Origin: a virus
Lineage: Duplodnaviria > Caudoviricetes
Virus record (IMG/VR): IMGVR_UViG_3300037067_019009
Location: 64,001-128,000 of that record
DNA length: 64,000 bases
Direction: 5' to 3' (one strand)
Under the pieces are notes generated by a model that ran no database searches, was not told the origin of the DNA, and saw nothing but the letters and a program-made list of their open reading frames with translations. Of this stretch, positions 637 through 49,644 are shown piece by piece; positions within the stretch are counted from its first letter, which is position 1, and the number at the start of each line of letters is the position of its first letter. The translations under genes and the position numbers were made by a program.

Positions 637-2769
637 TTAGCTCATGTCATGTGTAACCCTCCTACCCACATCTTGCAGAGTATAGTGGCTGCGAAGAGCA
701 AACTCAGCTTGCTTACCATTATTCCACTGACTTACCGGGCGCAGGTACCCAACTACGCGTGAATACACTTCTGTAGCGGCCTCACAGGTGGGGCATTTGT
801 CAACCTCGCCATCCAGATAACCATGTGTAGGACAGATAGAAAACGACGGGGTTATAGAGAAGTAAGGAAGCCTATAGTTATCGCAAACAGACCTCACGAA
901 CTTCTTTACCGCTTGTGGATCAGGCTCAGCCTCACCAAGAAACACGTGCAGACAGCTGCCGCCAGTGTAGAGTGTTTGCAGTTCATCCTGGGCATCCAGC
1001 ACCCCGAATATATCGAAAGTCGTGTCTACTGGGAGCTGCGTAGAGTTCGTATAAAACGGTTCAGGGCTTTCAGGGTACGCGAATTTTATATCCGGGTACA
1101 GCTGCTTATCCAGTCTGGCTAGCCGGTAACTGGTACCTTCCGCTGGTGTTGCCTCCAAGTTGTAAAGGCTGCCTGTCTCTTCCTGATAAACGGTAAGCTT
1201 ACCCCTCATGAAATTGAGAACCTCAACAGCAAAAAGCCGACCCTCTTCAGTCGATATATCACTTCCTAGCAGATTAATGCACGCCTCGTTCATTCCTACG
1301 AGCCCTATCGTTGAGAAGTGGTTGGTCCAGTACTTACCGAACCTCCTGAAAGTATCTCTCAAATAAAAACATGTGTATGGGTAAAGCTTCTTGCTGGTAA
1401 ACTGTTCAAGGACATCTCTTTTTATTTCGAGACTCTCTTTAGCTATATCCATAAGCTTACCTAGGCGTACAAAGAACTCCTCTTTGCTTTCAGATAGGTA
1501 GCCCAGCCTTGGCATGTTGATAGTGCAAACTCCCAGCGACCCAGTTAGGCTGTTGGCTCCGAACAGGCCACCACCTCTGCGCTCTAACTGGTCAATCCGT
1601 AGCGATAAGCGACAACACATGCTTCTCGTATCGTCCGGGGACATATCAGATCCTACAAAGTTGGCGAAATACGGAATGCCGTACTTCGCTGTAACTTCCC
1701 ACAGCTTATCTAACTCAAGGTTATTCCAATCAAAATCTTCCGTTATACTATAAGTTGGAATAGGGAAAGTAAATACTCTTCCACATGCATCCCCTTCGGC
1801 CATGACTTCTAGAAAAGCACAGTTGAGCATGGCCATTTCCTTTACAAACTCACCGTAGCATCTGTCCTTGTACTCGCCACCAATAACCACTGGCTGGCTG
1901 GCCAAATGTTCAGGGGGCTGCAAATCAAATGTCAAATTAGTGAAAGGCGTCTGAAATCCTACTCGCGTTGGTACATTTATATTAAAAATAAACTCTTGGA
2001 TCGCTTGCTTTAGTTCTTCATAACTAAGATCATCATAATACACAAACGGAGCTAGAAGCGTATCAAAGTTAGAGAAAGCAGAGGCTCCCGCTACTTCACC
2101 CTGTATAGTGTAGAAAAAGTTAACGATCTGGCCAAGAACAGCACGTAAATGTTTAGCAGGCTTAGATTCTATTTTACCGGCGGCCCCTCTAAACCCAGAG
2201 ACAAGTAGATCTTGCAAAGACCATCCGGAGCAGTAATTCGCAAGTAGACTCAAGTCGTGTATATGAAGATCGCCTCTCACATGGGCCGTCTTTACTCTCT
2301 TAGGATAAATCTTATTAAGCCAATAGGTCTCGCTTACTGTACTGGCCACATAGTTATTAAGTCCCTGCAACGAGTAGGCCATATTAGAGTTCTCTCTTAC
2401 TTTCCAATCAAGCCTTTCCAGATAGTTATCTACCAAAGCTAGATCGGACTTCTTTACAGCCTCTCGCATCTGGGCATGCTGTTCTCTATATATGATATAA
2501 GACTTGGCTGTCGCCCTAAACGGGGTAGCAAGCAGCACTTCTTCGACTATATCCTGCACCTGTTCTACCGAAGGTACCTCGTCTGTGACAGACACCTGCA
2601 TGAGAGATAGTACTTTGTTAGTCAAGGACTTAGCGATGTCGGTAGAAAACTCTCCAGATACTTTCCCAGCAGCCAGAAGAGCAGCAGTTATTTTCCTTGA
2701 ATCGAACTGGACGAGGTTACCGTCCCGCTTGCGTATTTGAGAGAATGCTGGTTTAGCATCAACGGCCAT
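637..2769 (-). CDS. nrdD: Class III anaerobic ribonucleoside-triphosphate reductase with N-terminal ATP cone
   Basis: IRKRDG...FDSRKI ATP cone; HIHDL; RSMCCRL; NLEATPAEG; CPTHG...CPTC; glycyl-radical YSRVVGYLRP. Start set at MAVDAK (ORF extends to 2823). Confidence 0.97.
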   Translation of the reverse strand: MAVDAKPAFSQIRKRDGNLVQFDSRKITAALLAAGKVSGEFSTDIAKSLTNKVLSLMQVSVTDEVPSVEQVQDIVEEVLLATPFRATAKSYIIYREQHAQMREAVKKSDLALVDNYLERLDWKVRENSNMAYSLQGLNNYVASTVSETYWLNKIYPKRVKTAHVRGDLHIHDLSLLANYCSGWSLQDLLVSGFRGAAGKIESKPAKHLRAVLGQIVNFFYTIQGEVAGASAFSNFDTLLAPFVYYDDLSYEELKQAIQEFIFNINVPTRVGFQTPFTNLTFDLQPPEHLASQPVVIGGEYKDRCYGEFVKEMAMLNCAFLEVMAEGDACGRVFTFPIPTYSITEDFDWNNLELDKLWEVTAKYGIPYFANFVGSDMSPDDTRSMCCRLSLRIDQLERRGGGLFGANSLTGSLGVCTINMPRLGYLSESKEEFFVRLGKLMDIAKESLEIKRDVLEQFTSKKLYPYTCFYLRDTFRRFGKYWTNHFSTIGLVGMNEACINLLGSDISTEEGRLFAVEVLNFMRGKLTVYQEETGSLYNLEATPAEGTSYRLARLDKQLYPDIKFAYPESPEPFYTNSTQLPVDTTFDIFGVLDAQDELQTLYTGGSCLHVFLGEAEPDPQAVKKFVRSVCDNYRLPYFSITPSFSICPTHGYLDGEVDKCPTCEAATEVYSRVVGYLRPVSQWNNGKQAEFALRSHYTLQDVGRRVTHDMS

Positions 2770-2936
2770 AAAAATAAGAAGCCCCCTATAAGTTAGTAAC
2801 AGCCGGTCTATGACCGGCCGCATACTATATTATAGGCATCATTTCCCTAAAACTAAGGAGGCTGGCTATTTTTTCTTATAATTATTTATAGTCTTGGAAC
2901 ATCCGTTACACATGTAACTCCAGCAAGCCCGTGCCG

Positions 2937-4569: not shown

Positions 4570-5150
4570 TACTTACTTATTTCCTTTCCAACTCCATGAG
4601 TAAGCCGGTAGTCGATATCTAGCAGCCTCTCTACCACATCCGTTAGTAGATAAGGTTTGAACTCATTGGTGTCTACTCCGACATCTATACTCCTACCATA
4701 ACCATCTAAGGTACCATGAGAATGACCGAACAAATGAAAAGACCCATAATGGCTACAGTCCCACACCCGCATAGCGTAATGGCTCATGACCAAAGGCACC
4801 GGGTACCCCTCACCAATATCTATAGATATGGTATAAAGATCATACACCATATCAAACAACCACTCATCTATCGCCTTATCATGGTTCCCCCGTATCAGTA
4901 TCTTTTTCCCGGGTGGCGATCCTGGGTACCCCATATCGGTAAAGAACTCCTGATATAAGGGGTACTCCTTTCTGGGGTTCCACCAGAAGTCACCAAGAAT
5001 GTACACGGTATCTTCTTCGGATATCGTAGAGTACCAGTTGTCCAGGATAGTTCTATTCATATCTTCTACAGAAGAAAATGGGCGCCCACAGTACTTTATA
5101 ATATTAGTATGATTGAGATGGAGATCAGCGGTTACAAAAACCTTACTCAT
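4569..5150 (-). CDS. Calcineurin-like metallophosphoesterase
   Basis: Motifs ADLH, LGDF, RGNHD, SHY, GHSHG, DVGVD. Confidence 0.92.
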   Translation of the reverse strand: MSKVFVTADLHLNHTNIIKYCGRPFSSVEDMNRTILDNWYSTISEEDTVYILGDFWWNPRKEYPLYQEFFTDMGYPGSPPGKKILIRGNHDKAIDEWLFDMVYDLYTISIDIGEGYPVPLVMSHYAMRVWDCSHYGSFHLFGHSHGTLDGYGRSIDVGVDTNEFKPYLLTDVVERLLDIDYRLTHGVGKEISK

Positions 5151-16216: not shown

Positions 16217-18310
16217 TCATTTTACCACACCCTCAGTTACACTTTTAATTACAGATATGCATCTATTCAAATTGTCTTTAAGCGTAGCATCCGCGCTAAT
16301 CAACCCATCCTCAACTGTACCCATCTCTTTCTGCCAGCTGGAGTAGGTGGCGTAACACTTCCTATAAATATCAGCGAGACGCTGGCAGTTATTACATGTA
16401 CAGCCTGTGACCTTAGTATCAAATACTTCCGGCATTTCCTTCAGAGTCTTCTTAGCCAATAGTGACCGCAGTTGTAAACACAGAGTCTCAGCTACACCTT
16501 CTCCAGTCCTCTCAGTAACCAGTATAGCCGTAGGACTCATTGGGGTATTGCCACAGCCTTCGCATGTAAGATCACCACAGTGGTACAACTTACGAGTATT
16601 AAGTAACTTAGTAACACACTCAGACATATTGCAGAATAGAGAATTTTTAGATAGGGCAGCCACCCCTCCGACCCTTTCCTCATGGGTTATGCCAGTAAAC
16701 TGCGCCCAATCTTCAGACACTCCTAACTTGTGACACAGTGCCATCCTCATCGCTATCGTTTGGGCCGGAGTGAAACCCACAACCCGCTCGTCACTATCCC
16801 TCGAAGACTGAGGACAGTACGCTAGGCCTGTATACAAGTCCATAGACGTTATGCGCCCTATGGGTTTTGGTATCTTCTCCATATCTACGACGATCTGTTT
16901 ATGCGAGGGTTTGTTGCCCGCAATCTGCAGCTCTGGATATGAAGTGTTGCCGGAACATATTAGATAACCACTGACTCCAAAATCTATGCTGTTCCTGATT
17001 GCACTTATTATACTACCAGCGTATCCGGTGTCAATTACAACAGCTCCTCTTGGAACCTCTAACCTCCACCATTTCCTCACTGCCGTATCGGTTACCCCAG
17101 AACTGCTGCACACGTTCCTGGATACTAAGAAATATCTAACATCCAACCCCTCTTCCTTAAGCCTCCAGAATACAGGCTCCGCGTCGCGACCGAGTATAAC
17201 GGTCGGTCTGCCTTTAGCGGCTCTAGAAACAGCATCTGCAGCTCTTGCAGTTATGTCAGCGGTGGAAGAAAGATCGATACCGCTATCTTTGGTGATCATA
17301 TAGATGAAAGACATCGTATCTGCTGCTCCAGATGAGCACATATTATAGTCTTTCCTCATCTTCTGGCGGTTTTTCTTTATAGACTCTGCCTGAAGCGCCT
17401 TAATCTTTTCAGCAAGCTCCGTCATTCCAGAGCGGACTGCCGCGGATAGAGTGCCTTCGGTCACCTTAGCTCCAGCCGACAATAGTTGCATCGCCAAATC
17501 GCCTTGCCCACTATTCATAGCACAGGCTAAAAGTGGCTGATTCGATTTACTTGCATCGGCACCGGCATCTAGCAGCAGTTTAGCTTTATCGAAGTAGCCC
17601 TGAATTACTGCTATATCTAAAATAGTTTTCCCGCCTGAATCGGTGGAATCTATAATATCTTTGCTGGCGTTACTTAGGAACTTCTTAAACACTCCCATCT
17701 GCTGGTTCAGCGAAATCCGTAGAAGCGTAGTATTGTTGACCTTAGTACCAGGAGACACTCCGTGCGTGATAGCATAATCCCAAATTTGTGCATCAGTTGT
17801 GAGACTAAGAAAATGATATCCATGTTTACTGATACCATCCACATTTTCCCCAGCCTCTACGGAAGCCGCCACTATACCAAGCGTCAACAAGCATACGGAG
17901 TTAAGCATTTCCCACCAGCAGTAGGCGCCTTTGTACACCCCATTTGGGCTGAATGCTGGTGACCCTATGATAGTAAGTAGGGCCGCTTCCCTGACTTTCA
18001 ATGAGATGTTAAGGTCCGGCGAGCAGACAGCCGTAGCCAGATCCCAAGTATTGTCATCCGGCCCGCGCATATAATAGGGGCCACCATCTTTAAGGAGCTT
18101 GGATAGTAAATTTGGCCGGTTAGCAACTACAGCAGCGCCTGCCAGAGTGTCGGCGTTATACAAAACCTGACTCGTATCATCTACCCCGACCCAATCCTCA
18201 CTGGAAATGAGTTGGCCTTTCCTTATCTTCCAGTAAAGCTCATAAGCAGGAGGCTTAATCTCCCCTACCCAAAAGCACTCAGGATCATACATCCCTGAAC
18301 CCTCCAACAA
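16217..18310 (-). CDS. Ankyrin-repeat protein with a C-terminal enzymatic-looking domain and Cys cluster
   Basis: GKTILDIAVIQGYFDKAKLLLDAGAD-type ankyrin repeats; ILGRDA and VIDTGYAGSI motifs; C-terminal HCGDLTCEGC/CTCNNC. Confidence 0.7.
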   Translation of the reverse strand: MLEGSGMYDPECFWVGEIKPPAYELYWKIRKGQLISSEDWVGVDDTSQVLYNADTLAGAAVVANRPNLLSKLLKDGGPYYMRGPDDNTWDLATAVCSPDLNISLKVREAALLTIIGSPAFSPNGVYKGAYCWWEMLNSVCLLTLGIVAASVEAGENVDGISKHGYHFLSLTTDAQIWDYAITHGVSPGTKVNNTTLLRISLNQQMGVFKKFLSNASKDIIDSTDSGGKTILDIAVIQGYFDKAKLLLDAGADASKSNQPLLACAMNSGQGDLAMQLLSAGAKVTEGTLSAAVRSGMTELAEKIKALQAESIKKNRQKMRKDYNMCSSGAADTMSFIYMITKDSGIDLSSTADITARAADAVSRAAKGRPTVILGRDAEPVFWRLKEEGLDVRYFLVSRNVCSSSGVTDTAVRKWWRLEVPRGAVVIDTGYAGSIISAIRNSIDFGVSGYLICSGNTSYPELQIAGNKPSHKQIVVDMEKIPKPIGRITSMDLYTGLAYCPQSSRDSDERVVGFTPAQTIAMRMALCHKLGVSEDWAQFTGITHEERVGGVAALSKNSLFCNMSECVTKLLNTRKLYHCGDLTCEGCGNTPMSPTAILVTERTGEGVAETLCLQLRSLLAKKTLKEMPEVFDTKVTGCTCNNCQRLADIYRKCYATYSSWQKEMGTVEDGLISADATLKDNLNRCISVIKSVTEGVVK

Positions 18311-40471: not shown

Positions 40472-42142
40472 TTATATGTTTCCCAAAGCGAATTGGGAAA
40501 TAAGATTTGGAGTAGCGGTATCAAACCCCACCAAATCTAGCATCCCAGAGTCATCCGGGTCTGCGATAGAGAACCCATTGCTTACCATCCCTACCACTAC
40601 GGATCTGGCGTTAGGGTTGATCTTCTTCCGGTACTCAGCGAGAGCCTGGGTGGGATGAATCTTTCCAGCCCAAGTCTCGCTATCCGTGTACACAACGAAT
40701 AAATCTATATTTAGATTGTTCTTTAATGCGTATAAAATAGGCAAAGAGCAATCTGTGCCACCGGCATCCAGTCCCTCTATATATTGGCATACGTCGCTTA
40801 TCCGTTGCTTACTACTGATATCAAGAGCAGAGACACTAGGAATACGACGATTAGTAGAGTCGGCTGTAAAACCTGTCACGACGACGTTCTTCTCAACAGC
40901 CTGGGTAACTAAAGCCATCGCAGCAGAACCAACTCTTGGAGTCAGTCCTGGGCAACCAGCAATGTTCACCCAAGTCATCGACGCAGATAAATCAAGAGCC
41001 AGCATTATATTTTTTCCGGTTGGCTCAACGTTTCCAAATGCAGTGTAGAATGCTCTATTGAGCGCGTCCACTACCTGTGTTACTGGCGTCCAGCTCCCAC
41101 TGCCCCTTACTCCCATCCCTGATCCGTATGTCAGAAGCGCCTTGAGTACATCTATAGGATGGACTCTACTCTTCCTGATCATCTCAACATCTGATAGCTT
41201 ATCTACCACGAAGTTGATAATGTCGAACTTCCCTGGAGCTAATAACCCACTCTTACTAAAGTTGCCCAGGTTCCTGAGTATTGCATGAAAAGGCATCTCC
41301 TGCAACAACTCCAGCTGCACATCCGGATCGCTCTTGAACTGAGAAGGTATGCACTCATGTGGAAGATTATAATCCTTAATTAAAGATATTATACCTTTCT
41401 TCCCGTCTTCAGTTTTAGCTTGCTCGAACGCGTAAATTATCTTAGCTGGAGTACCAGCAAACGTTTTTGCATCCAAGCCCTCGCGCACAACCCCGCGCTT
41501 CTTGTCTTCCCATCCATTAGTGCCATGTGTACACCACTGAAGGATGTTAGAGAAGAGATCGGAGTCCGCTTTAACATGAGATAGCCTGAGCAAATCTCTA
41601 TGGCTCCACCCATCACGCTGCTGGTACTTAGTAACTTGCAGTGACAAGGCACCGGCCGACTTACCTAAGTACCAATCCGCAACAGCGTTCTTCAGTAGGC
41701 GCCCCCATCCGCGAAGGTTAGTAACGTATTCAGCGAAGTGGAATAAGTGAGTTCCGATCCTGCAGACTTGGGGCAAAGCCGCAGCAGCTGCTTTCTTTGT
41801 TTCCACATCTCCAAAACTCATACACGCGGCGAGGGCGAAGATACAAGGGTCATTCTTTGGCGCTCGTCCAGCCTGAGAGATATCGACTATCTCTTTAACC
41901 AACTCGACGCCACTTGCCCTAATTACATTCTCCATAGCAGCAAAACTCTTCAGAGTCATATCTTTCTCTGTAGCATAATAGCTGCCACCCTCAGTGCCGA
42001 GGATCAAGAACCTCTTCACCTTCATCCACTCACTCACTTCGAATGAGTATCCCCCTGCCTGATTCTCCACCATCGACTTACCTGGAATAGGCTGGGTTTG
42101 CGGAGTTTTCTTTACAGACACATGCTTACTGTAGTTAGTCAT
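40472..42142 (-). CDS. rsr: Ro60/Rsr TROVE-domain RNA-binding protein with vWA domain
   Basis: NQAGGY, RFLILGTEGGSYY, VCRIGTHLF, KYQQRDGWSHRDLLRLSH, RVHP, ALDLSASM, GGTDC, TDSET, GFD. Confidence 0.97.
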   Translation of the reverse strand: MTNYSKHVSVKKTPQTQPIPGKSMVENQAGGYSFEVSEWMKVKRFLILGTEGGSYYATEKDMTLKSFAAMENVIRASGVELVKEIVDISQAGRAPKNDPCIFALAACMSFGDVETKKAAAAALPQVCRIGTHLFHFAEYVTNLRGWGRLLKNAVADWYLGKSAGALSLQVTKYQQRDGWSHRDLLRLSHVKADSDLFSNILQWCTHGTNGWEDKKRGVVREGLDAKTFAGTPAKIIYAFEQAKTEDGKKGIISLIKDYNLPHECIPSQFKSDPDVQLELLQEMPFHAILRNLGNFSKSGLLAPGKFDIINFVVDKLSDVEMIRKSRVHPIDVLKALLTYGSGMGVRGSGSWTPVTQVVDALNRAFYTAFGNVEPTGKNIMLALDLSASMTWVNIAGCPGLTPRVGSAAMALVTQAVEKNVVVTGFTADSTNRRIPSVSALDISSKQRISDVCQYIEGLDAGGTDCSLPILYALKNNLNIDLFVVYTDSETWAGKIHPTQALAEYRKKINPNARSVVVGMVSNGFSIADPDDSGMLDLVGFDTATPNLISQFALGNI

Positions 42143-42188
42143 TTGCTTTTGGTTCCTCTGGTCCTAGTCAGGACAAATCATTTGTAGT

Positions 42189-42325
42189 TGGGTGGTGGTG
42201 GGACTCGAACCCACACGTCCTTTCGGACAGCTGTTGCTGATAACCCTAACTGTCGGCTCTTAATAGAGAGCTAGTATTCGCTAGGATGTATATACGGCCG
42301 CGTCTGCCATTACGCCACACCACCC
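42189..42325 (-). ncRNA. tRNA-Y hybrid: class II tRNA body with a permuted Y-RNA module in place of the anticodon loop
   Basis: GGUGGUG/CACCACC acceptor, D arm, GUCCGAAAGGAC variable arm, GUGGG UUCGAGU CCCAC T arm; insert AUCCUAGC..CUAGCUCU-loop-AGAGCCGA..GUUAGGGU UAUC. Confidence 0.8.
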
Positions 42326-42350
42326 GTATTTGAAACACGGATACATATAG

Positions 42351-42426
42351 AATATGCTGAGCAAGTAAGATAGCTATGGGGGTGATCATTGGCAGTGATA
42401 ACCATAGCCAATCGGCTCAGCATATT
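42351..42426 (-). ncRNA. Mini Y RNA (third in transcript)
   Basis: GCUGAGCCGAUUGGCUAUGGUUAUC...CCAUAGCUAUCUUACUUGCUCAGC: bulged-C lower stem, upper stem, UUAUC. Confidence 0.85.
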
Positions 42427-42437
42427 ACTAATAGTTC

Positions 42438-42500
42438 TGCCGGACAAGTAGATTGGTGACGATGTTGTCCTTATGATAACCGTCACCATTCGGCCCGGCA
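42438..42500 (-). ncRNA. Mini Y RNA (second in transcript)
   Basis: UGCCGGGCCGAAUGGUGACGGUUAUC...CGUCACCAAUCUACUUGUCCGGCA. Confidence 0.85.
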
Positions 42501-42506
42501 CATATC

Positions 42507-42579
42507 TTCCACCGAACAAACAAATTGGTCATGGAGCGATCAGTACAAGTGATAACCATGACCTAACGGCTCGGCGGAA
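42507..42579 (-). ncRNA. Mini Y RNA (first in transcript)
   Basis: CCGCCGAGCCGUUAGGUCAUGGUUAUC...CCAUGACCAAUUUGUUUGUUCGGUGG. Confidence 0.8.
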
Positions 42580-42590
42580 CAACCTAAACA

Positions 42591-42619
42591 ATTATATGTT
42601 ATTTATGTTTACTTGTCAA
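42591..42619 (-). promoter_or_regulatory. Perfect sigma70 consensus promoter for the Y array and rsr
   Basis: TTGACA-17 nt-TATAAT on the minus strand. Confidence 0.9.
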
Positions 42620-42635
42620 GAGCGATTTATTTATG

Positions 42636-42912
42636 ATTTGGTAGTGGGCTGGATTCCCCACTCAGCTCCTACACAGCTTTTTCGACATCTCACTAGAGTT
42701 ATACTCACTAGATTATAATCCCAGCACAATGCCTCTCACGAACTTCGATACTGTATTAGTGATATACAGTTACGTTCTCCGCTGCACTTTTTGCGGCAGG
42801 TAATAGGGATACTTTTGGGCTCTTCACTCAAGAGGCAGGCCCAGTGTATCTAATACCCCATCTCCGACACCATTCTGCCTTACCTAGCGCTGCCACGCTA
42901 CCACTACCAAAT
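42636..42912 (-). ncRNA. Candidate structured RNA closed by a 12-bp terminal stem
   Basis: AUUUGGUAGUGG/CCACUACCAAAU; D-arm-like UA-GCG-UGGCAG-CGC after the 5' strand; several internal hairpins. Confidence 0.5.
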
Positions 42913-44143
42913 ACTTATAAACTGGCTCATAGCGCCTTTCTTTACCTGCACCATCTAGGTATAGATCGGTTACACATGTAACCGCTTATCTTATTCAGGT
43001 GGAAAATCCATGTCATTCATCTGCTCGACGGTCCATCCAGGCTCCAAAAGTATTTTTTTGGAGTCCCGATCATTTTGTGGGGGAATTATAAGCAGCCTTC
43101 TGCCACCAGACTGAACAATATTTATTGTTTTCCTCGAAATAGTGTGCAACTGATACAGTATCTTACCCTGTTCATCACGCACTATGGTATACTCATCCGG
43201 GTAAACACTAAAGTGCATTTTATTAAAAAGCATCGTTCGAGAGACTACTAACACACCTATCGAAAAGGCAACTAACCCAATCACACTCATCACTTTAATT
43301 ATAGTCTGCACAACCTCATCCTCCTAACTTCGTATATTAGATAATACCTGCACCCCGCAAAGGTAAAATTACTGCCGTATGCAGCCCTGCCAGTAAGCCT
43401 GCCCAGAAAACGCCACCACTGCGCTTACAGCGAGCAGCGTGCATAAAACTACCACAATTATATCTATTATCATGCACGCAAAAAGCCTCTTCTTTATATC
43501 CCTATACACTTCTCTGGAACTGTGGATAAAGCCTAAAACAGGAAGCATTACCATTGCCACATGTATCCAAACAATAGCCAATCTTACTTCCTCCTTCCTT
43601 CAAGAAAACTATTCGAGAGATATGGATTCTTATTTAACCAAGCTTTTAACCTTATTATAGAGTGTGTACTGAGCTTCACACCAAATTCACTATGGCCATA
43701 GACATCTATGAAGCTCGTGTACCAGTCACTACCTAACCTGCTAAACCGCAAACGATTGTTGTTGGCATCCTTGATTTCCACATATGACACCTCACTATCT
43801 ACCTGCGTTTCAGTACCCTCCATTGCGTTATGCTCTCTCGAAATCTCCCCAGCCAGGTTTCTATTACTAGCTCTTGGCCGGGAAATTACTATGAGATAAA
43901 TCCACCAGTTAGCAATCAGAGCCAGCAAAAGCACCACTCTGAGAGTATTACTATCCGCATCACTGAGAGTCCCGAGAAGAACCGTAGAGGATAAGAACAT
44001 GAATGCCGTTACTATATATTTAAACATACTCTTTTTCTTCCTACCTTAGCGGTTCTACTTTAACGAAGTAACACCATTTTTCACCACGCATCAAATCTGA
44101 GCATTCACGACACGGCAATTGACTGCACAAAGCATATGCGTGC

Positions 44144-47141: not shown

Positions 47142-47218
47142 CTAGGAAACAAAGTGGGAACTGAAGAGAGTTGTAGCACGGATCATCGATTCCAAAGGAG
47201 ATCTACCCTCTGGAATAG

Positions 47219-47295
47219 TCGGCGGGTAAGGATTTGAACCCCAGTCCTCCTACTAGTACATTACTGTAGACACTCTACCACTGAGCTACCCGCCG
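47219..47295 (-). ncRNA. tRNA-like RNA with enlarged 12-nt anticodon loop
   Basis: CGGCGGG UA GCUC AGUGGUA GAGU G UCUAC [AGUAAUGUACUA] GUAGG AGGAC UGGGG UUCAAAU CCUUA CCCGCCG A. Confidence 0.7.
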
Positions 47296-48813
47296 GTGTT
47301 TAAACTGCCCCTACTCATATGCTCCCCATAAAACCTTCAGCTCTTAACGGCGGCGTAATTTCCCACCTTTACCCAGAAGGGAACCATTTTCCTGAAGCCC
47401 CCAGTTTGAAGCTTGCACGGTATAAACACACAATACGCAGTGCTGCTACTGACTCCGACACTTATGATCTTCGTGCCGGGATATCCAAGCACCATCGTGT
47501 CACTTACTTCAATGATCTTTACAAGCTCGCAGTCTTGCTTAAGTAGCAACCTTCTTATCGCTACTTCTACTTTTGTGATCCACATTGCTAATTTCATTTT
47601 ATTTGTCCTTTTCATTATAGGCCGTACTTGTCGTAATATGCCCGCAAAAGAAAAACTTATAGTAGACTCCTACCTTCAAATCGATAAACCTTCGTCTTGG
47701 CATAGCACTTCAACCCTTTTTGTAAATCATATCCCTATAGCCTTTACTTAGCTTTCCTACTTTAACTTTTCCATGTGTTTATCCGCAATGACTTGAGGAT
47801 AATTACTAGACACGCTTATGGTTCTATTACATACTCCAACTCGGAGTCTGCCTTCTACAAAAGCATCCATGAATGATTTCTCGAATTCGTTCTCGGGTAT
47901 AATATTTATAAAAGCCGCTGTGGGATCAACTAGATTTTGCGAAAAGGTAACTTTCACTATATATTCCTTCTTACTTCTTACCACTCCAACTTATTTCCCA
48001 CTGAACTTTAAACCAAGTCCAGGGCTTATACCAACAACATCTACCAACTCTCCTAGCAGACACAGCTATAAACCTCGGGGAGGGTACGCCATCCTTCGGG
48101 CAGACTACAGGAACATTACCTCGACTAAAAACCGTCTTACATTGTGGACATTGCTCACAAAACTCGAACTTCCCCATGGTTGTGCCCCTCAGCGAGTTAT
48201 ATAATTATACGTACACGCTCTAGTTATAGAATAAGTATTGTAGATTTTGTCCTGCTACACGACATATACAGTGATGTCATCCGAATGCTGCCCCGCTGCT
48301 GCTGGTCGTTGACTACAAAAGTAGTAGGATATCCTCCCACAACTCATCAGCATCTAGTTCCCCTGTGTTCGGTTGACAGGACAAATATAAAGACAAGACA
48401 ACAAGCTATCTTGAAGGATATATTCTCGGGAGTTACATGCAAAGTAAACCCAATCCTCAACATGCTTACCCACAGGGGTGTTTCCATATTGGGAATGTCA
48501 AGATAACTACTCTACCCACAACCTTGCTCTACTGCCTTGCCTATTGATCCACCAGGAGATCATCCCTTGCAGTATCAATCTCTACTACTAGGCTACTAGA
48601 CCATTATTCTGCCACCGCAGAAAAATTAGCAATAAATAGAACAAAGACGACCAGTAGAATCTCACTGGTACCATAGTTTCCATCACAGGCGGTGGTAATA
48701 CAAGCTATAGCGGAGCCAAGGGCTCCTACTAAATCTATAATAGCAACAACTGATTTCATAACATCATACCTTCCATTCATCTAATAGAATAGACTAGCTA
48801 TAAATATAAGCCA

Positions 48814-48905
48814 TCAGCGGGGAAGGACTCGAACCCCCGACCTTGCACATGTTACAGTGCTTTCTCCTTAAATAGGAGTCGCTCTACCAACTGAGCTACC
48901 CGCTG
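48814..48905 (-). ncRNA. tRNA-like RNA with two hairpins in place of the anticodon arm
   Basis: CAGCGGG UA GCUC AGUUGGUA GAGC..CUCCU AUUUA AGGAG..GCAC UGUAACAU GUGC..GGGGG UUCGAGU CCUUC CCCGCUG A. Confidence 0.7.
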
Positions 48906-49644
48906 ACGAAACATCAAGTAAGTTATAGGCTTTCCCTCAATCCGTGACCTTACACTTTTGGTAAATCCGACGCTGACGCTCTAGGTTTTGCGCAAGATTA
49001 TGCTCTGTAAGACTCGGAATACCAAGAAACTCCCTGACACACTTCCTCTTACAGTCCATACAGTCATGTAGACTCGAAAAGCAGCAGAATTTATCGAAGC
49101 CTCCGGCATATGCGGCAAGCATCGAAGTAAGCATCTCGGCAGCGTCCTCAGGATCAAGAAATTCATATCCTACCGGGAGGCTAATATGCATACGCTGATA
49201 TATAGTCCAGTAATCCTTATTATGTTCCGGATGTGGAATGACATAACTATACCGGAACCAAGGGTCATCGTTTCGCTTATTAACACACTCGGGAATTAAA
49301 GAGATGCATACTTCCGGCATCCAGGAGGATTGTGTAATCACAATGCGCTCAGAATGTGGAACGATATCTATAATATAAAAGAAGCGGTCCTTATCATTAC
49401 CAGCGAATTGAAGTACATACTTCTTACCAGTACTGGCCTGATTAAATTCGCAAACAGCTTCTTTAATAGGAGCAATAAGCTTATCATGCAGAGCTTTCTG
49501 CTGGCTTTGAGCCTCCTCTAATTCCACAACTTTCTGCTTCTCAACACCTTGTATAAAGGACCTGGCCCTGTTTACGATACCAATTACTTCATTCATCTTG
49601 CCCATGCACTTACCCCACTTGTAGATACGCTCGCAAAAGAAGAT

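Follow-up and report, generated by a model that had tools for sequence, protein, structure and literature searches.

In the present study, we found that the Ro60 gene of an uncultured phage is preceded by three short hairpins that belong to a large family of elements lying beside Ro60 genes in phages and bacteria. Judging from their sequence and predicted structure, these hairpins are probably (about 80%) Ro60-binding Y RNAs of the hairpin type. Particles of Ro60 and Y RNA constitute a conserved machine for RNA surveillance and are also a major autoantigen in humans. The stretch of DNA analyzed here, which is called the window, covers 64 kb (bases 64001-128000) of a 212,668-bp IMG/VR virus record. 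This record was estimated to be 84% complete and encodes a large terminase. The minus strand is the coding strand for all of the genes around the Y RNA/Ro60 locus, and the features recognized along it in the 5' to 3' direction are given below (R1 is the first covariance model, built from the units of a pattern finder).

42591..42619, minus strand: sigma-70 promoter TTGACA-17-TATAAT, 12/12 consensus positions
42507..42579, minus strand: U1, predicted hairpin-type Y RNA, 73 nt; fold -30.5 kcal/mol, z -4.0; R1 47 bits
42438..42500, minus strand: U2, predicted hairpin-type Y RNA, 63 nt; fold z -4.0; R1 61 bits
42351..42426, minus strand: U3, predicted hairpin-type Y RNA, 76 nt; fold z -4.9; R1 54.4 bits
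42190..42324, minus strand: predicted tRNA-shaped Y RNA; Rfam tRNA model 35 bits, with a 67-nt insert at the anticodon position
40472..42142, minus strand: Ro60, 556 aa, complete; Pfam TROVE 1e-38, vWA_Ro60 9.9e-55

The order is therefore promoter, U1, U2, U3, tRNA-shaped RNA, a short leader and Ro60; the leader contains a GAGGA ribosome-binding site that is followed by the Ro60 start codon. The hairpins lie 209-437 nt upstream of this start on the same strand. From the promoter to the gene, the cassette spans approximately 2.15 kb and would comprise one Ro60 and four Y RNAs with at least three apical types. The Ro60 open reading frame corresponds to the RNA-binding protein of PHROG 850 (6e-71), and its matches in the PDB include Ro60 (9nen, 1.7e-123), Xenopus laevis Ro60 (1yvp, 2.5e-118) and Deinococcus radiodurans Rsr (2nvo, 4.6e-114). 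At the DNA level, the search of isolated phages gave just short and weak Ro60 matches, in Gordonia and Streptomyces phages, and at the protein level the search with Ro60 gave 357 phage records with an identity of up to 46%. Agrobacterium phage Atu_ph07 (L164, MF403008.1 93591-95246) has a Ro60 homologue that covers 93% of the query at 39% identity and carries the annotation 'Clp protease-like protein'; no Y RNA model match at E <=1 was obtained in the 2 kb flanking it on each side.

The preliminary description of this DNA had placed a TTGACA-17-TATAAT promoter immediately upstream of the array, and this was confirmed by the agreement at 42619-42591. The predicted start of transcription lies at about 42585-42584, which is 5-6 nt ahead of U1. 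In the 64-kb window, perfect promoter matches numbered 2 against an expectation of 0.05. The other one (TTGACA-N16-TATAAT, 17007-17034, minus strand) is located within a 697-aa open reading frame (16217-18310) that has no PHROG match. Near-consensus sigma-70 promoters were also enriched upstream of the first unit in relatives of the locus. Promoters with at least 10/12 consensus positions were present within 120 nt upstream of the first unit in 13/47 viral and 9/63 bacterial relatives, vs 7/550 control segments, and one relative (L069) has another perfect promoter. Predictions for the minus strand from 42590 to 40472 yielded neither an internal promoter nor a terminator. The layout together with this negative prediction is consistent with one transcript that runs from the promoter through Ro60.

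Some further observations were made around the promoter and elsewhere in the window. Upstream of the Y/Ro promoter, a stretch of about 370 nt (window 42636-42912, minus strand) contains no open reading frame longer than 81 aa and no Rfam match. A second promoter-like site, GTGAGA-16-TATAAT with 10/12 consensus positions, is also found upstream of the Y/Ro promoter (42739-42712, minus strand). At 47218-47295 and 48813-48906 (minus strand) there are tRNA genes with oversized anticodon or variable regions, which consist of a 12-nt insert at the anticodon loop and a 20-nt extra arm. In addition, an NrdD-like anaerobic ribonucleotide reductase is encoded at 637-2823 (minus strand; PHROG 487, 2.6e-93), which hints at an anaerobic or microaerobic host.

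The three units had been put at 63-76 nt by the preliminary description, and they were confirmed as hairpins of 73, 63 and 76 nt on the minus strand. Their folds gave z values of -4.0, -4.0 and -4.9 for U1, U2 and U3 against dinucleotide shuffles, and 0/200 shuffles were as stable. The lower stem of each unit has a bulged C (GNC-C-GA facing UUG). In every copy, the N of GNCG and the G of the 3' UUG form a base pair; the C after the N is left unpaired, and a G.U and an A-U pair come next. The internal loop has 2-3 nt on the 5' strand vs 6-8 nt on the 3' strand, the upper stem is 8 bp in each unit, and the loop of 17-22 nt opens with UUAUCA (GGUUAUCA). The spacing from the bulged C to UUAUC is 13 nt in all three units. 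Both G(A/G)GCCG and GGUUAUCA are present in U1-U3 and also in the fourth, tRNA-like element. The 3' motifs are UUUGUU (U1), CUUGUC (U2) and CUUGCU (U3), with YUUGY as the common form; the pattern G(A/G)GCCG ... GGUUAUCA ... (C/U)UUG(C/U) reported earlier was thus recovered in all three units. U2 is closest to the consensus, with GGGC-C-GAAU, GGUUAUCA and ACUUGUCC, and its loop contains GGACAAC. U3 has a 12-bp lower stem. The most divergent copy is U1, which has GAGC-C-GUUA where the others are CGAA-like, and UUUGUU on the 3' strand.

Alignment of the three copies to the R1 model gave six compensatory pairs, three in the lower and three in the upper stem, and four pairs that differ by wobble-compatible single changes; no pair was broken. 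One upper-stem pair is G-C, U-A and C-G across the copies. Since the stems vary at six compensatory pairs and none is broken, the internal covariation that had been claimed for this array is real. The Rfam tRNA model and the T-loop motif (GTTCRA) gave no tRNA signal in U1-U3. The tRNA model matched 42324-42190 only, in agreement with the earlier statement that these units lack a tRNA-like domain. Furthermore, no Rfam family was found for U1-U3, neither at gathering thresholds over the whole window nor at E 10 over 42000-43000 and 42345-42585.

To place the hairpins among their relatives, loci were collected by means of the Ro60 protein. They comprised 80 viral loci (33-50% identity) and 80 bacterial loci (46-54%), the latter mainly from Chloroflexota, Verrucomicrobiota and Armatimonadota. 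In 1.09 Mb, a pattern finder that requires GNCG, UUAYC and both stems detected 117 units on the Ro60 strand vs 3 on the other strand; U1-U3 were its only units in the window. With 45 of the units, RNAalifold recovered the two-helix structure, with compensatory changes at 16/17 pairs. The R1 model gave 189 matches in the 160 Ro60 loci, of which 188 were on the Ro60 strand (81/81 in the viral and 107/108 in the bacterial set). Among the non-redundant matches, 161 were upstream of Ro60 and 12 were downstream; in relatives, the nearest unit often ends 65-135 nt ahead of the Ro60 start. One relative (L045) has two strong hairpin units downstream of Ro60 (4746-4807 and 4824-4891; 62.9 and 53.3 bits) and a third unit upstream. 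Since it has units on both sides, the position of a unit relative to Ro60 is not fixed.

At least one R1 match was present in 44/65 non-redundant viral and 68/80 bacterial loci, and at least two were present in 17 viral and 29 bacterial loci of these sets. At least three were found in 3 viral and 9 bacterial loci, which is 12/145 of the related loci, and contiguous triplets like that of the window occur in an Anaerolinea MAG (L090) and in L138. The array proposed by the preliminary description was therefore upheld and the singularity that it implied was not, because relatives commonly carry two to four units in an array. Three hairpins with a tRNA-shaped RNA are at the high end of array sizes and are not unique.

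Covariation in the family was counted on model-fitted alignments whose seeds had been picked for pairing ability, so the following figures lean towards structure: 92.5-93.3% of the cells pair, vs 64-73% after shuffling and 27-51% with the partners slid, and the covariation score is 0.57-0.77 vs 0.20-0.26. The bias in strand and position and the slid controls, which are independent of how the seeds were picked, mitigate this leaning without removing it. The signal is cleanest at the N of GNCG, where the viral loci have C-G in 42 cases and U-A in 21, with no wobble, and the bacterial loci have C-G in 99 and U-A in 5. This exchange of C-G and U-A establishes the pairing that bulges the next C.

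A second covariance model, R2, was built from bacterial loci only, and the sequences of the window were excluded from it. In the 64-kb window, R2 detected U2 with 45.2 bits (E 3e-8), U3 with 41.2 bits (E 2.6e-7) and U1 marginally, with 18.1 bits (E 0.059). There were no further R2 matches elsewhere in the window or in the 212-kb phage record. Structural alignment of the units with homologous loci, the kind of check that had been suggested, gave real covariation, and a model made from bacteria alone recovers the three units. The motifs are also conserved beside related TROVE genes, with the signature present on the Ro60 strand in most of the 160 loci. These units are members of a large Ro60-adjacent family of phages and bacteria, which has no Rfam entry. 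U1 may be a weak binder or may be decaying, because it is off the CGAA consensus and reaches only 18 bits with the independent model R2.

The UUAYC motif was tested with candidates that had been selected on the Ro-binding helix and the upper stem alone. This selection gave 163 candidates on the Ro60 strand vs 70 on the opposite strand, the latter being an estimate of background. The motif is located at the top of the upper stem in 86 candidates on the Ro60 strand vs 1 on the opposite strand, and from this contrast we conclude that essentially every genuine unit has UUAYC. Rare variants such as UUCUC were seen. The distance from the bulged C to the first U of UUAYC is 13 nt in 142/152 members of the family.

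The loops of the family have a median of 22 nt and are A-rich and G-poor. Two recurrent classes were observed. The class UUAUCA-N-UGAY accounts for 17/129 loops vs 2.0 expected; it includes U1 and U3, whose loops are of the form UUAUCAC..UGAUC, and it is also present in the Ro60-proximal unit of many Verrucomicrobiota. The class GACAA accounts for 12/129 loops vs 3.5 expected and includes U2. That these classes exceed expectation argues for selection on the loops. The four different Ro ligands proposed earlier reduce to two hairpin loop classes (U1 and U3; U2) and one tRNA-like module. A third helix between UUAUC and the distal loop was considered and rejected as a feature of the family, since at least 4 bp were found in 19/132 loops vs 16 ± 3.5 in shuffled ones; U1 and U3 are able to form AUCA/UGAU. 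The loops were also considered as antisense guides to the phage. In the 212-kb phage genome, their longest perfect match is 9-11 nt vs a shuffled mean of about 10.8, and the suggested complementarity to phage RNAs did not exceed chance. In the literature, nothing relevant was found on cryo-EM contacts of Ro60-Y RNA complexes to UUAUC.

The fourth element (42324-42190) has the arm order of a native tRNA, with a 7-bp acceptor stem, a D arm, the Y module, a small hairpin and a T arm. The Y module, GAGCCGACA...GGGUUAUCA, replaces the anticodon loop, and its lower stem is closed by a hexaloop. In comparison with canonical YrlA the wiring is opposite, because the element ends at the acceptor stem and carries the Y core in the anticodon position. 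Canonical YrlA wiring was seen in L011, L023, L067, L072, L076 and mycobacteriophage Bxz1. The native tRNA order is apparently shared by the closest Ro60 relative, L001/L054 (L001 about 2560-2710).

Phage Ro60 genes with neighboring Y RNAs have been described before, in 22 phages in 2014 (PMC4201824) and biochemically for phage phiLo in 2025 (PMC12135203). Among the known hairpin Y RNAs are YrlB of Salmonella Typhimurium and Mycobacterium smegmatis and Yrn2 of D. radiodurans (Chen et al. 2014, PMC4201824). U1-U3 resemble them in being short, in having no full tRNA-like domain and in lying beside rsr/Ro60 together with a tRNA-like Y RNA. Chen et al. found relatives of YrlB within Salmonella serovars only (PMC4201824), whereas the family described here spans many phyla and phages and keeps both strands and UUAYC; YrlB and Yrn2 were compared by description only. 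In the Thermus phage phiLo, Ro60 is preceded by the hairpins Yrl1 and Yrl2, which were found through CGAA in a stem-bulge-stem context (PMC12135203, NAR 2025). The phiLo Ro60 binds both of them and forms ternary complexes with the host PNPase in vitro (PMC12135203). Our units are likewise stem-bulge-stem hairpins upstream of a phage Ro60, with CGAA in U2, CGAU in U3 and CGUU in U1. Unlike the two elements of phiLo, with which the comparison is by description only, the present locus has three hairpins and a tRNA-shaped RNA, and neither a UUAUC motif nor family-wide covariation is described in the phiLo report (PMC12135203).

The 5' motif through which YrlA binds Ro is GNCGAAN0-1G (Chen et al. 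2014, PMC4201824). U2 has it exactly (GCCGAAUG), U3 has it with one departure (GCCGAUUG) and U1 with two (GCCGUUAG). YrlA has D, T and acceptor-like arms, whereas U1-U3 have none. The R2 model aligns the canonical YrlAs of Bxz1 and of Gordonia phage Cashline, in which the tRNA-like domain appears as a large insertion after GGUUACC, and a conserved UA has been described at the junction of the YrlA core and its tRNA-like domain (YrlA structure, bioRxiv 10.1101/312249). Because R2 aligns YrlAs, we regard the core as common to both kinds of RNA, capped by a tRNA-like apical module in YrlA and by a plain loop in the hairpins. Among the long matches at Ro60 loci, 13/28 contain the T-loop motif.

The Ro locus of the Bxz1 cluster of mycobacteriophages, gp220, is known from Pedulla 2003, in so far as that report is cited in PMC4201824. 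In Bxz1, the unannotated gap of 484 nt between gp219 and gp220 contains a hairpin, a YrlA and a second hairpin according to R2 (L162 1600-1944; AY129337.1 about 129843-130187), as follows.

L162 1600-1672: hairpin, 73 nt (model R2)
L162 1698-1840: YrlA, 143 nt (model R2)
L162 1875-1944: hairpin, 70 nt (model R2)

Two of these three elements have GGUUACC, and the third, the 70-nt hairpin, has GGUUAUC. Bxz1 is like the present phage in being large and tRNA-rich, with tandem Y RNA elements ahead of Ro60. Its tRNA-like element differs from that of the window in having the canonical YrlA topology, and its Ro60 is about 40% identical.

Metazoan Y RNAs are Pol III transcripts with an oligo-U tail that binds La. 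The hairpins have several features in common with these RNAs and with nematode sbRNAs, namely the lower helix with a bulged C, the upper stem and the loop that opens with UUAUC. In vertebrates, the Ro60 site is a helix with a single bulged cytidine, and the loops of both sbRNAs and vertebrate Y RNAs begin with a conserved UUAUC (PMC4726728, PMC4450293). Bacterial Y RNAs have been called highly divergent and non-homologous with the vertebrate clades (PMC4726728). As references, we used the published 5' parts of human Y4 (PMC7012775) and mouse Y1 (PMC4597359). The spacing of 13 nt between the bulged C and UUAUC is identical in both 5' fragments. Ungapped identity to the human Y4 fragment is 20/31 for U2, 19/31 for U3 and 16/31 for U1, and the range for the human Y4 and mouse Y1 fragments together is 14-20/31; random 31-mers have a mean identity of 25% and a 99.9th percentile of 52%. 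The likeness to vertebrate Y RNAs that had been noticed before was therefore supported, both by this spacing and by 16-20/31 identical positions in published 5' fragments.

There are also clear differences. The Rfam Y_RNA model (RF00019) did not match U1-U3 at E <=10. Unlike metazoan Y RNAs, the units have no oligo-U tail of the Pol III type, and no run of U occurs in the sequences after them (GAUAUG, GAACUAUUAGU and CUAUAUGUAUCC). Their loops are much shorter, and they form a polycistronic array behind a sigma-70 promoter. In the literature searched, a scope that excludes two Wolin-lab reviews (PMC10870794, PMC6542706), we found no paper in which UUAUC is tied to bacterial or phage Y RNAs. 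On the whole, it is conceivable, at somewhat less than even odds, that the hairpins and their approximately 190 relatives are directly homologous to the Y RNAs of animals and the sbRNAs of nematodes. If this is true, UUAUC would be a determinant of ancient origin within the Ro60-Y RNP itself, acting for instance as a kink or as a contact to Ro60 or to an effector, and would not be a signal of DNA replication that is specific to eukaryotes. Ro60 and Y RNA would have moved between animals, bacteria and phages as one unit. Published claims of non-homology, and of conservation of the 5' strand only in bacterial Y RNAs, would then need revision.

We propose that the DNA with the promoter and the small RNAs is the front half, without coding function, of an operon for a Ro60 ribonucleoprotein of the phage. 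The strong sigma-70 promoter would give one RNA that contains three hairpin Y RNAs, the tRNA-shaped Y RNA and the Ro60 mRNA. The helix with the bulged C is the site recognized on the outer surface of Ro60 in animals and in Deinococcus, and by this precedent the lower helix of each unit would dock on the outer surface of the phage Ro60. Cleavage of the precursor probably releases the individual RNAs. The tRNA-shaped element may be processed by RNase P and 3' trimming, endonucleases may cut the short AU-rich spacers, and bound Ro60 would halt exonucleolytic trimming. This processing is suggested by analogy with M. smegmatis, where a single precursor encoded upstream of rsr gives rise to both YrlA and YrlB (PMC4201824).

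The resulting Ro60-Y RNPs would gate the cavity of Ro60, and the loop would tether a host effector that binds single-stranded RNA during infection. A phage-encoded effector was considered and rejected. In the phage record, estimated to be 84% complete, the search for a PNPase/RNase PH domain, RtcB or a CCA-adding enzyme found none, so any effector would be host-encoded. RYPER of Deinococcus and Salmonella is a precedent for a tether between Ro60, Y RNA and PNPase. On the basis of this precedent and of the phiLo Ro60-Yrl-PNPase complexes formed in vitro (PMC12135203), PNPase is the most plausible candidate for the tethered effector, and we put it forward only tentatively. The roles in PNPase targeting, RNA repair and decoy function that were proposed in the preliminary description are speculative.

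Other explanations of the hairpins were also weighed. Rather than giving rise to separate small RNAs, they could act in cis, as binding sites for Ro60 within the 5' leader of its mRNA, and so allow Ro60 to exert feedback on the stability or translation of that mRNA. The hairpins do share a predicted transcript with Ro60 with no predicted terminator between them, and the short distance of 65-135 nt from the nearest unit to the Ro60 start in many relatives would suit such a function. Against it, twelve non-redundant units are situated downstream of Ro60, for instance two in L045, and the tRNA-shaped element, a natural site of RNase P processing, lies between the array and the mRNA. Moreover, the equivalents in M. 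smegmatis, D. radiodurans and S. Typhimurium are discrete RNAs bound by Ro60 (PMC4201824). Hence, regulation in cis appears unlikely.

The array could also act as a decoy or sponge that titrates host Ro60 or effectors binding Y RNA, instead of serving the phage Ro60. Several copies behind a very strong promoter would fit a sponge, and Ro60 homologues of about 50% identity are present in Chloroflexota, Verrucomicrobiota and Armatimonadota, among which the host could be. An intact phage Ro60 directly downstream of the array speaks against this idea, and the same arrays occur beside the cell's own Ro60 in bacterial chromosomes, where a decoy would be senseless; we consider it highly improbable. 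The lack of an Rfam family might suggest that the hairpins have nothing to do with Ro60 and either arose by chance or represent generic intergenic repeats, such as REP-like elements or attenuators. This explanation is effectively refuted by the E values of the independent model R2 (3e-8 and 2.6e-7), the bias of strand and position towards Ro60 in 160 loci, the abundant compensatory changes and the lack of further copies in the 212-kb phage. The reading as hairpin-type Y RNAs that bind Ro60 is accordingly the one that we prefer.

We could not find an earlier description, in the literature searched, of the family-level signature or of the close likeness to animal Y RNAs, and these are the new aspects of this study. 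The family model finds Y RNAs beside most of the Ro60 genes examined, including unannotated ones in well-studied mycobacteriophages. The cassette permits a side-by-side test of how the apical module affects the partners of Ro60. Furthermore, the UUAUC motif of animal Y RNAs and sbRNAs accompanies Ro60 in prokaryotes and in their viruses as well, and its function can therefore be tested in simple systems.
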